Positions 6,350 to 11,556 of a stretch of DNA of 64,000 nt are shown here, in pieces. This stretch comes from a bacterium (GTDB lineage Bacteria > Zhuqueibacterota > Zhuqueibacteria > Residuimicrobiales > Krinioviventaceae), in contig OY843751.1 in assembly GCA_963693055.1 (NCBI GenBank), positions 3,840,001 through 3,904,000 on the forward strand, read 5' to 3'. A program made the position numbers and the translations under genes. Each line of letters begins with the position of its first letter. Within the stretch, counting starts at the first letter, position 1. Below the pieces are notes generated by a model. It was not told where the DNA came from and did not search any database. It saw nothing but the letters and a program-made list of their open reading frames with translations.

Positions 6350-6728
6350 CAAGATCTCATGATGTTGAATTGTCGAACCTTTTTTATAAAGACTTTAAAC
6401 AACTACTTGATTTAACATGATTAAAGACAGAGATGTAACTAATCAGAAAAAAAAACGCTGAAAATGTTTTTCAATCAATATTTCATTAATCCAATTATTT
6501 TATCGATCAGTTCAAAAAAACTAGTATTTCTCCGGCCGAATACAAAAGCGCGAGTATTTTGGATTTCAAATTATATTCCGGAATTAATGTATATAATTTT
6601 TTGTATATTGATATATACCAAAGGGCTAAACACGAATTTTCACACTGGACGTCAATTTTGCATTGCAGGATTGTATTGCCGTTCGCGCCTGTTACCATTC
6701 ATGTTATATAGTTGAATCAAAAAATCTT

Positions 6729-7289
6729 ATGAAACTATACATTAAATACATGGTAAGCTTGCGATGCAAGATGATGGTAGAAGAAGAGTTGAAAAAACTT
6801 GGACTACATCACTCAAAAATTGAATTGGGTATGGTTGAAATTATAGAAAACCTATCTATAGAACAACGTGAGCAATTTAAAAAAAACTTGTCAAGATCAG
6901 GGCTTGAGCTGCTGGATGATAAAAAAAGTATCCTGATTGAAAAAATAAAAAATGTAATTATTGAAATGATTCATCATTCAAATGAATTACCCAAAATGAA
7001 TTATTCGGATTATATCAGTGAACAATTAGGCTATGATTATACTTATCTGGCAAACACATTTTCAGAGGTCAAGGGCATAACCATTCAGCAGTACATTATC
7101 AATCATAAAATCGAAAAGGTCAAAGAATTACTTTTATATGACGAGTTGAATCTTACGGAAATTTCCTATAAACTACATTATAGCAGTGTTGCCCATTTGT
7201 CCAATCAATTCAAAAAAGTAACGGGTCTATCTCCTTCCTTTTACAAACAATTGAAGCAAAAACGTAAGAAAAACCTGGAAAACATGTGA
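6729..7289 (+). CDS. AraC-family transcriptional regulator (short Bacteroidota-like type)
   Basis: C-terminal double HTH (LNLTEISYKLHYSSVAHLSNQFKKVTGLSPS); N-terminus MKLYIKYMVSLRC. Confidence 0.9.
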   Translation: MKLYIKYMVSLRCKMMVEEELKKLGLHHSKIELGMVEIIENLSIEQREQFKKNLSRSGLELLDDKKSILIEKIKNVIIEMIHHSNELPKMNYSDYISEQLGYDYTYLANTFSEVKGITIQQYIINHKIEKVKELLLYDELNLTEISYKLHYSSVAHLSNQFKKVTGLSPSFYKQLKQKRKKNLENM

Positions 7290-7291
7290 TA

Positions 7292-7321
7292 TATGTAACA
7301 TTTAGCCATTTTTATGTAACA
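7292..7321 (+). promoter_or_regulatory. Putative AraC-type operator, direct repeat TATGTAACA x2
   Basis: TATGTAACA at 7292-7300 and 7313-7321 (21-bp period), between the AraC gene and the downstream operon. Confidence 0.4.
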
Positions 7322-7574
7322 CAATAACGGTTTGACAAGCCTACATTCCTATACAAGTATTTCTTGTTTATCTCAACAAAATCAGATTGTTTGGAACCTC
7401 TCGTATTGTTATGTGTTCCTGTTTTTATTTCTTTTACAATAACAGCTAATCTTGGGTTTATTAATCAATCCATATACCTTATCGCAACCCAACCACATGA
7501 AGCTACAAGTAAATACTGCAAAATACGTATATTCAATTATGAATACTGGTATTAACCTAATCAAAAGGTAACCA

Positions 7575-8669
7575 ATGAAAACAAAAGCGATTGTTTATAG
7601 TGAAAATGAATTCGGCAAGCTGGATGGTAAAGTTGCTAATGGACTGGCCAGACAATCAGAAAAATATGATATTCTTGGTATAATCGATAGTTCCAAAGCA
7701 GGGCTTGATGCCGGAGAGTATCTTGATGGAATAAAGAACGGAATTCCAATCTTTAAAAGTATTAAAGATTCGATTAAAAAGCTGGGGTTTGTTCCCGAAT
7801 CTTTAATTTATGGCATTGCCCCTCTCTCAACATTGCTTGATGATGACCAGAGGAATATATTATTTGACGCTATGAAAACAGGCATGAACATTATAAGCGG
7901 ACTGCCTGAATACTTTACTGATGATGAAGAATTTATACAGAAAGCGCAAAAATATAATGTAAAAATAGTCGATGTCAGAAAACCCCCGGCACGTAAAGAC
8001 TTGCATTTATTCTCTGGACGTATTATTAATGTCAATGTACCGGTCATTACTGTATTGGGCACAGATTGTGCCGTTGGCAAGAGGACTACCGCACTCAAAA
8101 TTGTTGAAGCCTTGAGACAAAATGGCTTAAATGCCTCATTTGTAACAACAGGTCAAACCGGTTTGCTTCAGGGATCAAAGTTTGGTATAGCAGTAGATGT
8201 TTTAACAACTGGATACTCTACCGGAGAAGTAGAAAATGCAGTTGTCAATGCTTATGAACAAGAAAATCCGGATATAATTGTCGTCGAAGGCCAGGGCTCT
8301 CTGGGGCATCCGGCATTTACCTCTTCAGTTGCAATTATAAGGGGATCTATGCCAAATGCAATTATACTTCAGCATCCGCCTAAAAGAAAAAAACGGTGCG
8401 ATTTTTCCAGCTTTAATATGCCCACACTTGAAAGTGAGATTGAACTCTTGCAAGTATTTTCTAAATCAAAAGTCATTGCCATTACAATCAATCATGAAGA
8501 CATGACTGACAGTGAAGTGAGTAATAAAATTAAAGAATATGAATATAGATTTGAAATCCCTGCAACTGATGTTTTAAAATTCGGATGTGATAAAATTGTT
8601 GAACAGTTATTTAACACTTTTCCGGAATTACAGGAAAGCGCACCGCTGGTATGTCAACTCCAAGATTAG
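7575..8669 (+). CDS. DUF1611 family protein (DgcN-like N-acetyltransferase, P-loop fold)
   Basis: GKVANGL, GTDCAVGKRTT, TTGQTG, VVEGQGSLGHP motifs. Confidence 0.85.
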   Translation: MKTKAIVYSENEFGKLDGKVANGLARQSEKYDILGIIDSSKAGLDAGEYLDGIKNGIPIFKSIKDSIKKLGFVPESLIYGIAPLSTLLDDDQRNILFDAMKTGMNIISGLPEYFTDDEEFIQKAQKYNVKIVDVRKPPARKDLHLFSGRIINVNVPVITVLGTDCAVGKRTTALKIVEALRQNGLNASFVTTGQTGLLQGSKFGIAVDVLTTGYSTGEVENAVVNAYEQENPDIIVVEGQGSLGHPAFTSSVAIIRGSMPNAIILQHPPKRKKRCDFSSFNMPTLESEIELLQVFSKSKVIAITINHEDMTDSEVSNKIKEYEYRFEIPATDVLKFGCDKIVEQLFNTFPELQESAPLVCQLQD

Positions 8670-9715
8670 AAATAGATCTCAAAAAAATTACCCATAATGC
8701 AACATTGCTGAAAGAGTTGTATGGATCAAAAGGGGTTGATGTTATTGGGGTGACAAAAGCCATTTGTGGAGAACCTGTTATTGCTGATGCTTTACTACAA
8801 GCAGGTATAAACATCCTTGCTGATTCAAGGATAGACAATATCATAAAAATGCGCAATTCAGGAATAGATGCCAAGTTTATGCTTCTAAGGACGCCCTGCC
8901 TCAGTCAGTCCAAAAGTGTTGTAAAATTTGCGGACATTAGTCTGAATTCTGAACTCATTGTGATTCAAAAACTTTCACATTTTGCAATAGAATCTCAAAC
9001 CACGCATCAAATCATTTTAATGGTTGAACTTGGAGATTTAAGAGAAGGTATCATGCCAAAGGATTTAGATCGTACTGTTCAACAGGTATTAAAGCTTGAA
9101 GGCATTGAGCTTGTAGGTTTAGGGACAAATCTGGCCTGTTTTGGCGGCATTAAACCTGATAATGAAAAAATGGCAATGCTGTCATCTATTGCAATGGATG
9201 TTGAAAAAAAATTTAGCCTCATATTGGAATTCATTTCCGGTGGCAACTCGGCCAATTATAATTGGTTCATTTCAGCTACAAATGTAGGAAAAATTAACAA
9301 CCTGCGGCTTGGAGAATCAATTTATTTGGGATGTGAGACACTTGACAGGGAACCCATTTCCGGATTGTTTACTGACGCGTTTACCCTGGTAGTAGAAGTT
9401 ATTGAATCTAAAATAAAACCCTCTCTTCCCTATGGAAAAACGGGTCAGGATGCCTTTGGAAACACCCCTGAATTTCAAGACCAAGGTTCTATGAGGAGAG
9501 CTATATTGGGGATTGGTTTGCAGGATATTCCGGTTTCCGGATTAACTCCCAGAATGGATATTGATATCCTGGGAGCAAGCAGTGATCACATGATCATTAA
9601 CGCAAAAAACATAAAACTACAGGTGGGAGACGAATTGAAATTTAATTTAAATTATGGAGCTTTGCTTGCAGCAATGACTTCGTCATACGTATTTAAAGAG
9701 ATTAAAAGCATATGA
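8651..9715 (+). CDS. Alanine/ornithine racemase-family PLP enzyme (fold III, Orr/YhfX-like)
   Basis: GVTK PLP lysine, ADSRI, ELGDLREG, GTNLACFGG, SGGNS, RLGE, ASSDH. Confidence 0.85.
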   Translation: MSTPRLEIDLKKITHNATLLKELYGSKGVDVIGVTKAICGEPVIADALLQAGINILADSRIDNIIKMRNSGIDAKFMLLRTPCLSQSKSVVKFADISLNSELIVIQKLSHFAIESQTTHQIILMVELGDLREGIMPKDLDRTVQQVLKLEGIELVGLGTNLACFGGIKPDNEKMAMLSSIAMDVEKKFSLILEFISGGNSANYNWFISATNVGKINNLRLGESIYLGCETLDREPISGLFTDAFTLVVEVIESKIKPSLPYGKTGQDAFGNTPEFQDQGSMRRAILGIGLQDIPVSGLTPRMDIDILGASSDHMIINAKNIKLQVGDELKFNLNYGALLAAMTSSYVFKEIKSI

Positions 9716-10386
9716 ATACTCGAGAATATTGCATAAAAGCTGAACAAAAAGAAAAAAGGATCAAACAGCTTTATCCCACTTTTCCCGTCAAAGATGACAA
9801 TTCACCACTGGTTAGTCTAAAAGATTCGGGATTTAGTTTAATGTTTGAGCCCACAATTATAGAAAATTATCAATATTTAGTAAGAGAAGCTGTTTATGAA
9901 AAAATTGGTCGCATAAGTAAAATACTGGTCCAGGACGATAAAGAATTGATCATTCGTTCAGCCTGGAGATCTTTTGAACATCAGCGTTTTTTATGGGAAA
10001 ATAAAGTTGTCTTTATGCAACAAACACATCCGGACAAATCATTGGAAGAAATAGCAGAAATCGTTTCTTTTTATATCGCTCCTGATACCTTGTCGATGCA
10101 CGCAACCGGTGGCGCTGTGGATGCGTTGATATTTGATTTGAAGAACAATTGTGTTATGGATTTTGGAACGAATGAGGGTTTAAAAATAGACCTGAATGAA
10201 AGATGTTACCCCTACCATCCGGATATATCATTCAATGCCCAAAAGAACAGAAAATTATTAATTGATCTGTTTGAAAATGAAGATTTTGTCGTTGATGTTA
10301 TAGAATACTGGCATTTCAACTATGGCAATGCCTGTTGGGCAATAGAAACAGGAAATGAAGCTATATATGATGTTATTAATCCATAA
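9712..10386 (+). CDS. D-Ala-D-Ala dipeptidase, peptidase M15D (VanX/DdpX-like)
   Basis: SAWRS, SMHATGGAVD (SxHxxGxAxD), EYWHF. Confidence 0.8.
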   Translation: MNTREYCIKAEQKEKRIKQLYPTFPVKDDNSPLVSLKDSGFSLMFEPTIIENYQYLVREAVYEKIGRISKILVQDDKELIIRSAWRSFEHQRFLWENKVVFMQQTHPDKSLEEIAEIVSFYIAPDTLSMHATGGAVDALIFDLKNNCVMDFGTNEGLKIDLNERCYPYHPDISFNAQKNRKLLIDLFENEDFVVDVIEYWHFNYGNACWAIETGNEAIYDVINP

Positions 10387-10477: not shown

Positions 10478-11316
10478 GCATTCCGAAGGCGAGGTGGCCT
10501 CTTGTTGCGGGAATGATAAAATACGAGTCTGAACCACTGGACGATACTCTAATACCCCAAAACGCAAAAAGGCCGCCTAACTTGGCAGCCTTTAAAGCAT
10601 CCCCTGGGGGAGTCGAACCCCTGTTGCGGGAATGATAAAATACGAGTCCAAACCACTGGACGATACTCTAATACCCCAAAACGCAAAAAGGCCGCCTAAC
10701 TTGGCAGCCTTTAAAGCATCCCCTGGGGCGGGTTAAATCCCTGTTGCGGGAATGATAAAACCAGAGTCGGGATCACTGGACGATACTCTAATACCCCAAA
10801 ACGCAAAAAGGCCGCCTAACTTGGCAGCCTTTAAAGCATCCCCTAGGGCGGGTTAAATCCCTGTTGCGGGAATGATAAAATACGAGTCCGAACCACTGGA
10901 CGATACTCTAATACCCCAAAACGCAAAAAGGCAGCCATTCTTGGCAGCCTTTAAAGCATCCCCTAGGGCGGGTTAAATCCCTGTTGCGGGAATGATAAAA
11001 TACGAGTCCGAACCACTGGACGATACTCTAATACCCCAAAACGCAAAAAGGCAGCCATTCTTGGCAGCCTTTAAAGCATCCCCTGGGGGAGTCGAACCCC
11101 TGTTGCGGGAATGATAAAACCAGAGTCGGTACCACTGGACGATACTTGATACTCTTAAACGCAAAAAGGCTATCATTTCTGATAGCCTTTTAAAAGCATC
11201 CCCTGGGGCGGGTCGAACCCCTGTTGCGGGAATGATAAAACCAGAGTCGGTACCACTGGACGATACTTGATACTCTTAAACGCAAAAAGGCTATCATTTC
11301 TGATAGCCTTTTAAAA
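10478..11316 (-). repeat. Tandem array of seven ~120-bp tRNA-Glu-derived units (terminator hairpin + truncated pseudo-tRNA)
   Basis: Units start (+ strand) at 10478 (degenerate), 10597, 10716, 10836, 10956, 11076 and 11196; shared core tgttgcgggaatgataaaa...cactggacgatact matches the D/anticodon/T arms of the adjacent tRNA-Glu. Confidence 0.95.
11281..11316 (-). terminator. Rho-independent terminator of the tRNA operon
   Basis: Minus strand AAAAGGCTATCA-GAAA-TGATAGCCTTTTT directly after tRNA-Glu; identical copy near 11161-11195. Confidence 0.8.
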
Positions 11317-11317
11317 G

Positions 11318-11389
11318 CATCCCCTAGGGGAGTCGAACCCCTGTTGCAGGAATGAAAATCCTGAGTCCTAACCACTAGACGAAGGGGAC
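11318..11389 (-). tRNA. tRNA-Glu (TTC), CCA not encoded
   Basis: GTCCCCT-TCGTCTAGTGGTTAGGAC-T-CAGGA TTTTCAT TCCTG-CAAC-AGGGG TTCGACT CCCCT-AGGGGAT-G cloverleaf. Confidence 0.95.
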
Positions 11390-11416
11390 GTCTAAGTATT
11401 TTTTGGTGTAAATCAG

Positions 11417-11490
11417 GGTGAGTGACGGGACTTGAACCCGCGACGACCAGGACCACAACCTAGCGCTCTACCAACTGAGCTACACCCACC
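11417..11490 (-). tRNA. tRNA-His (GTG) with G-1, CCA not encoded
   Basis: GGTGGGTGTAGCTCAGTTGGTAGAGCG-CTAGG TTGTGGT CCTGG-TCGTCGCGGGTTCAAGTCCCGTCACTCACC. Confidence 0.95.
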
Positions 11491-11527: not shown

Positions 11528-11556
11528 AATATATAGCTTTTTTTATTTCTAGTCAA
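11528..11556 (-). promoter_or_regulatory. Sigma70-type promoter of the tRNA-His/tRNA-Glu operon
   Basis: TTGACT-N17-TATATT on the minus strand, ~37 nt upstream of tRNA-His. Confidence 0.65.

Follow-up and report, generated by a model that had tools for sequence, protein, structure and literature searches.

The tRNA-linked repeats (TLRs) of Escherichia coli, among them the tyrT repeats and rrA, rrB and rrF, have been known since 1978, and according to the available text of one account a function or origin is still lacking for most of them (PMC8144298). They occur in one to five copies per locus, can be expressed by terminator read-through and keep 18-19 bp of the tRNA, the short 3′ piece that the original prediction had rightly named for repeats of the tyrT/rtT type; no link to a nuclease appeared in the part of that paper available to us (PMC8144298). 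Small GIY-YIG nucleases have been tied to repeats of another kind: the Ssn nucleases (SsnA) are single-domain GIY-YIG proteins of about 100 aa associated with short NTS/SRM hairpin repeats (PMC11893778), and the word ‘tRNA’ is absent from the main text of that paper and confined to one annotation table in 12 of its 14 supplements. A mechanistic precedent is SegB, a free-standing GIY-YIG homing endonuclease of T-even phages, for which the available text describes how cutting drives the tandem amplification of tRNA genes through homologous recombination (PMC13096335).

The locus described here lies in a 64,000-nt window of the source genome (G000), the window being the whole stretch of DNA that was analysed and the frame for all array coordinates. 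An intact tRNA-Glu gene is followed on the minus strand by seven tandem units of 121, 120, 120, 120, 120, 119 and 119 bp, ending at position 10478. The seven units of 119-121 bp that had been noticed behind the true tRNA-Glu are borne out by TRF (period 120, 7.3 copies, 91% matches, score 1158) and by a BLAST search of the tRNA-Glu against the whole of G000, which returned seven copies with 73.5-88% identity and E-values from 7e-14 to 3e-5. The features of the locus are as follows.

11528 to 11556, minus strand: sigma-70-like promoter consensus (10/12) upstream of tRNA-His; a consensus match only
11416 to 11489, minus strand: tRNA-His(GTG), intact
11317 to 11389, minus strand: tRNA-Glu(TTC), intact; the copy in the congener is identical
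11196 to 11316, minus strand: unit 1, with terminator allele A, linker and pseudo-tRNA (11263-11196)
about 11312 to 11285, minus strand: terminator of unit 1, allele A, with a 12-bp stem and a GAAA loop
11076 to 11195, minus strand: unit 2, with terminator allele A, linker and pseudo-tRNA (11142-11076), T-arm near intact
10956 to 11075, minus strand: unit 3, with terminator allele B′ (imperfect stem), GGGG linker and pseudo-tRNA (11023-10956)
10836 to 10955, minus strand: unit 4, identical in sequence to unit 3
10716 to 10835, minus strand: unit 5, with terminator allele B, GGGG linker and pseudo-tRNA (10783-10716)
10597 to 10715, minus strand: unit 6, with terminator allele B, GGGG linker and pseudo-tRNA (10663-10597), T-arm near intact
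10478 to 10596, minus strand: unit 7, with terminator allele B, GGGG linker and the most diverged pseudo-tRNA (10544-10478)
9712 to 10386, plus strand: Peptidase_M15 gene (D-Ala-D-Ala dipeptidase family), a convergent neighbour outside the element that served as a yardstick of divergence

The consensus match at 11528-11556 is likely the promoter of a His-Glu tRNA operon, and the same consensus scan listed no promoter-like site within the array. Each unit combines a hairpin and its T-run with a linker of 20-25 bp and a copy of tRNA-Glu nt 8-73; this copy comprises 66-68 nt derived from the tRNA, which are 76-91% identical to the intact gene. As predicted, the 5′ acceptor strand is missing in all seven units, which would leave the copies unchargeable, and the anticodon loop carries one extra base in every one of them. 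The further claim that the copies are near full length and retain the T-arm holds for the nt 8-73 body; as for the T-arm, units 2 and 6 alone have it in near-intact form, whereas it bears an insertion in unit 1 and both an altered loop and an insertion in units 3-5, and is heavily diverged in unit 7. The identity of units 3 and 4 suggests a recent duplication, and the pseudo-tRNA of unit 5 is a mosaic, one half being of the unit 1/2 type and the other of the unit 3/4 type. The tRNA copies are separated by gaps of 53-54 bp that contain no gene and no integrase. An 88-aa ORF (11456-11190) overlaps both tRNA-His and tRNA-Glu and was taken as spurious, and a relaxed ARAGORN run on the window, with 659 mostly spurious calls, was not used. 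Beyond the array, four plus-strand ORFs of 208, 364, 354 and 224 aa (window 6663-10386, the last being the Peptidase_M15 gene) converge on it; in several relatives tRNA-Glu is followed by a glycosyltransferase gene, which in G000 sits 29 kb off (C1:3821281), so that the block at 6663-10386 may be inserted.

In Photobacterium phosphoreum, a tRNA-Pro pseudogene cluster is said to consist of several pseudogenes derived from tRNAs and arranged in tandem after functional tRNA genes, reportedly with neither a terminator per unit nor a link to a nuclease. The E. coli TLRs likewise follow a tRNA gene immediately, as tandem units that end in a copy of its 3′ end, but where they keep 18-19 bp, each unit of the array keeps 66-68 nt and has its own terminator (available text of PMC8144298). 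The SegB case, as far as the available text goes, concerns full-length, functional phage tRNAs under defence pressure, whereas the copies here are chromosomal, bacterial, broken and insulated by terminators; it is nonetheless an earlier example of tRNA genes amplified in tandem through a GIY-YIG nuclease (PMC13096335).

The array is real: in the congener (G001), the same place is occupied by an array of five units, with derived changes in common with the array of G000 and with both terminator alleles, in an order unlike that of G000; the diverged 3′ end of unit 7 recurs in its last unit. In run X1, which may be the source sample, a contig over the proximal repeat has a depth of 21.6 as against 8.84 and 9.78 on the flanks, and run X4, from another study, contains a G001-like array; the coverage of run X7 is too sparse. 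None of the contigs listed from four runs spans the whole array, so the number of seven is the assembly's count. An assembly artefact, which had been named at the outset as one way in which the array could dissolve, would fit this lack of a spanning contig but is scarcely credible, given the independent five-unit array of the congener with its shared derived changes and the raised repeat depth in X1; the units differ, moreover, both mutually and from the tRNA-Glu by shared derived changes. Comparable arrays in relatives, the other point on which the original prediction was staked, proved to be limited to this congener: none was found at tRNA-Glu in 67 further genomes of the phylum, which are mostly fragmented and in which repeats assemble poorly. 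The resulting set of 68 genomes with a readable tRNA-Glu locus derives from 74 fetched regions, less three that end at the tRNA, two without a tRNA-Glu and one duplicate, and none of the 68 has a GIY-YIG gene behind tRNA-Glu. Two scans of metagenomes, one with the pseudo-Glu signature and one with a tRNA end followed by terminator allele A, gave 0 matches each. A pattern search of the phylum, of which the best 150 of 383 matches were considered, was too noisy for copy counts and served for coordinates only.

A search for similar arrays behind other tRNAs had also been proposed, and a BLAST of the 45 tRNA and tmRNA genes of G000 against the genome reveals tandem tRNA-end repeats at tRNA-Asp, at a tRNA-Met fragment and at tRNA-Pro(TGG). 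A custom profile finds only three GIY-YIG-like ORFs in G000, one of them truncated, and both of the loci at which they occur lie within tandem units of a tRNA 3′ end and a terminator. The nucleases measure 87 aa (tRNA-Asp locus) and 85 aa (tRNA-Met fragment), with PF01541 E-values of 1.8e-18 and 9e-15, and their NCBIfam scores fall below the cut-off. At tRNA-Asp (L031, G000:C1:5147242-5148040), short gene-less units are accompanied by one intact 87-aa GIY-YIG unit and by hairpin-bearing tRNA ends; the tRNA-Asp of the congener has an apparent 22.7-kb island, and the nuclease was not found there. The other GIY-YIG units (L032, G000:C1:2551530-2552180) lie behind the tRNA-Met fragment, 30 kb from the intact gene and with an island between. 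In the congener, the same cassette sits directly behind tRNA-Met (L064) as a five-copy array in which 117-bp gene-less units alternate with nuclease units, and the leader of its nuclease has an 11-base T-run/GGGG stretch in common with the linker of array units 3-7; this stretch occurs 23 times in G000, five of them in the array. Nuclease units with gene-less units on their flanks occur at L041, L043 and L083 as well. The repeats at tRNA-Pro(TGG), both in G000 (L033, G000:C1:3672754-3673040) and in the congener (L269), are gene-less and comprise a terminator, a hairpin, GC-rich in G000, and a tRNA end.

A survey of the phylum with the Asp nuclease as query gave 109 matches in 74 of 167 genomes. 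Fifty nuclease loci (54 matches; the 30 top-ranked and 20 picked by hand) were surveyed, and ARAGORN places a tRNA near 27 of them, a figure that leans upward because the query is itself a tRNA-linked nuclease and the second 20 loci were hand-picked; a tRNA or tRNA fragment lies within about 1-1.5 kb at 31, while random 3.26-kb windows of G000 contain a tRNA in 1.5% of cases. The order within a cassette is intact tRNA, terminator, purine-rich linker, nuclease gene, a tRNA copy without its 5′ end, and terminator. Among 30 aligned cases, 23 have a copy behind the nuclease gene that starts at nt 8-25, two have one that starts earlier and five one that starts later, a count that leaves out six weak alignments, includes one row with a false ARAGORN call and rests on local alignment, which may over-extend; at L039 and L041 the start is nt 8 and nt 9, as in the array. 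Since most copies begin in this range, a near-full tRNA body without its 5′ strand is the normal cassette form, and the retention that had seemed unusual in the array is usual behind tRNA-lodged GIY-YIG genes. In the cassette copies inspected, a hairpin replaces the anticodon arm or splits the T-loop.

The tRNA-linked nucleases are 79-92 aa long in most loci. On a tree built from 58 proteins over 88 columns, with many open forks and without the two loci that have internal stops, the tRNA-linked label needs 4 changes as against 16.1 in shuffles, which speaks for clustering only, because kin share labels; the groups largely track the tRNA, with 14 rows mostly Lys, 3 Pro and 7 Met. Cassettes also turn over between the two species, the nucleases lying at Asp and Met in G000 and at Met and Lys(CTT) in the congener, with none found at Asp in the latter. 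The likeness to the Ssn systems extends to a mobile-element-like layout, a similar nuclease size and the presence of hairpins, which the tRNA-linked nuclease copies carry as well (PMC11893778, as far as available). The SRM consensus is present in 2 of the 50 nuclease loci but has no match in the arrays of G000 and G001 or at the Asp and Met loci, and Ssn systems have a nuclease, whereas the array itself carries no gene. An Ssn-like layout is seen in the congener at L065 (G001:C2:1862900-1865200), where three copies from a hairpin family that occurs dispersed in the genome flank a 93-aa GIY-YIG gene; G000 has about 20 copies of this family, and a profile search finds no such gene there. Two of the five units of the congener's array have a hairpin of this family upstream of the tRNA body, an insertion that may be secondary, because the L065 protein falls in a separate, non-tRNA clade. 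Hairpin-capped tandem copies of 5′ tRNA halves were seen upstream of the intact tRNA at the nuclease loci L040, L042, L043, L044, L045, L071, L073, L083 and L178, and none are present at the array locus.

Beyond the phylum survey, a genome collection was scanned for pairs of tRNA-Glu 3′ ends at a distance of 335-395 bp; this yielded at least 121 loci, and most of those listed are ordinary duplicate genes. A nuclease unit stands behind tRNA-Glu in 8 of the 121 among the matches listed, all of them titled Bacteroidota, and the complete genome of Marivirga tractuosa ac6 (L118/L265) has five such units in tandem. Tandem complete nuclease units of about 380 bp were observed behind tRNA-Glu at L118/L265, L148 and L178, and L119 is a gene-less version with a T-loop hairpin of the cassette type. 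In Gammaproteobacteria, pseudo-tRNA-Glu arrays occur without a nuclease nearby (L160, L145, L166 and L198; Reinekea, Arsukibacterium); these arrays have replaced anticodon loops, and that of L160 (Reinekea) comprises six copies of about 117 bp. They may represent a second route or another element. At L084, L130, L131, L139, L158 and L170, in several phyla, tRNA-Glu is followed by units of about 190 bp whose T-loop is interrupted by long palindromic inserts rich in GC. Terminator allele A was considered as a marker of the cassette: among 249 loci it is confined to the arrays of G000 and G001 and to three nuclease cassettes at tRNA-Glu in Cytophagales, it occurs in 2 of 167 phylum genomes, and in the three Cytophagales genomes it is found at the cassette only. 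In a control of 301 Cytophagales genomes, six further genomes have the motif, in none of the six near a tRNA or a nuclease and instead beside ordinary genes. The control having failed, allele A is treated as a generic terminator. The idea of a decayed cassette hairpin in the D-arm/anticodon region was likewise given up, the motif being too short and too common.

What, then, do the units represent? The original prediction had offered three readings, namely tRNA-mimic RNAs that act as decoys for anticodon nucleases or tRNA-binding toxins, a bank of decoy or spare attB sites, and neutral amplification. The first draws on the 66-68 nt of tRNA-derived sequence in each unit, at 76-91% identity, and on the D-, anticodon- and T-stem pairs, 115 of 168 of which are still possible across the 12 units of the two species. 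It is nonetheless very unlikely and, judged from the sequences, largely refuted: scoring with the Rfam tRNA model, proposed for each unit, lists none of the seven at E<=10 (the genuine tRNA-Glu scores 59.2 bits), the acceptor stem is absent, a cloverleaf is predicted for none of the seven, none of the 12 units keeps the pair that closes the anticodon loop, and of 19 distinct stem changes 16 disrupt a pair, although the units are not independent of one another. Mutation targeted to the stems is not claimed (16 of 28 stem positions changed as against 14 of 36 others; Fisher p 0.21). A functional small RNA of some other kind is also improbable. In its favour are the persistence of the array in two species, an extended D-arm hairpin that can be folded in some units and a known parallel, in that read-through produces RNAs of the TLR family to which Hfq and CsrA bind in vitro (available text of PMC8144298). 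Against this, the two congeners differ in copy number and order, and no array was found in 67 other genomes of the phylum; folding z-scores of the seven unit bodies range from -0.12 to -2.21, with no fold common to G000 and G001. The best cross-species identity of the unit bodies is 82-94%, while the Peptidase_M15 gene has 17 differences among its 225 third positions and the tRNA-Glu has 0 in 73, so that the divergence of the units, at or above the third-position rate, looks like decay at the neutral level or faster. The array is probably inert. A role for the copies as attachment sites, spare or decoy, of tRNA-Glu-targeting integrases is extremely unlikely. Islands do use tRNA genes of G000 (fragments at Arg, Met and Pro), there is the apparent island at tRNA-Asp of the congener, and a partial tRNA duplicate downstream of an intact tRNA recalls the attR fragments of integrative elements. 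However, the anticodon loop is altered in all copies, the T-arm or the 3′ end is off in every one, and the integrase and cargo of an integrative element are absent between the intact tRNA-Glu and its copies. Fragments of the attR type in G000 start at nt 25-33 and lie 4-50 kb off, whereas the array copies start at nt 8; BLAST finds no other tRNA-Glu fragment of note in G000, and none was seen in the stretch inspected upstream of the glycosyltransferase gene 29 kb away.

The third reading, neutral amplification, is supported, but the original prediction had overlooked where the units may come from. On balance, we think it probable that the array is the gene-less remnant of a small, probably selfish, tRNA-lodged GIY-YIG nuclease cassette, amplified by recombination. 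It follows the cassette order of tRNA, terminator, purine-rich linker and a tRNA copy lacking its 5′ end, repeated, and differs in having no nuclease gene, which is present behind tRNA-Glu in the eight Bacteroidota loci. The main rival is plain duplication without a nuclease, in which slippage or recombination would have copied tRNA nt 8-73 and the terminator, with the silent copies then amplified and decaying neutrally, as in the TLRs. We regard this as doubtful, but it has much that fits: no nuclease was found at tRNA-Glu in the 68 phylum genomes, the pseudo-tRNA bodies have no internal hairpin, divergence is at the neutral level, allele B resembles the tRNA-Glu terminators of relatives (L004, L007 and L011), and the nuclease-free arrays of Reinekea and Arsukibacterium suggest that pseudo-Glu arrays may arise without a cassette. 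It would, on the other hand, require an extra source for the two terminator alleles and the linker, unseen in relatives, the 5′ boundary and linker fit the cassette pattern, and the other tandem tRNA-end repeats seen in G000 (Asp, Met fragment and Pro(TGG)) carry a nuclease or a cassette-type hairpin. Several observations weigh against the cassette remnant itself: a nuclease-bearing parent was not found in the phylum or metagenome scans, the copies are without the inserted hairpin typical of cassettes (a GC-rich hairpin in the anticodon arm or T-loop is seen in none of the seven), and the shared linker stretch is short, while the allele A match failed its control.

We propose the following route from a nuclease cassette to the present array. 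Cassette entry would duplicate the 3′ part of the tRNA together with the terminator, probably when the nuclease cuts within the tRNA gene or close to it and the break is repaired by recombination. The nuclease gene at tRNA-Glu would then have been deleted before G000 and G001 split, a loss made plausible by the fast turnover of cassettes between the two. Unequal recombination or slippage between units could subsequently have changed copy number and order, giving seven units in one species, five in the other, and mosaics. The first terminator would largely silence the copies downstream, which would therefore decay while the promoter-proximal tRNA-Glu stays intact.

The array is best seen as a new form of tRNA-linked repeat, and it points to a mini-nuclease element lodged at tRNA genes that has apparently not been described; the literature searched, mostly outside subscription papers, yielded no account of GIY-YIG genes that sit behind tRNA genes in bacteria. 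Because the array is probably inert, its value would lie in the evidence for such an element and not in a new RNA. More tentatively, it could be the footprint of a widespread minimal selfish element, in which GIY-YIG nucleases of 80-90 aa, in lineages each tied to one tRNA gene, home by duplicating the tRNA 3′ part and terminator, leave broken, cut-resistant copies behind and spawn non-autonomous 120-bp units that amplify and possibly act as a nuclease sink. If true, this would explain the origin of many bacterial tRNA-linked repeats and tRNA pseudogene arrays, and if the nucleases cut their own tRNA gene, they would form a family of very small, tRNA-specific DNA cutters. Gene-less and nuclease units of one design occur together in G000 and G001, and an origin through tRNA-gene-cutting GIY-YIG nucleases is therefore testable in this pair.

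Two further features of G000 were observed. The tRNA-Arg(TCT) gene has a 5′ half (nt 1-40) at C1:1543244-1543205 and a 3′ half (nt 33-74) at 1459779-1459738, 83 kb apart with the intact gene between, and these are likely the ends of nested islands. A short repeat-spacer array with a period of about 65 (G000:C1:1495336-1495887) resembles a small CRISPR array.
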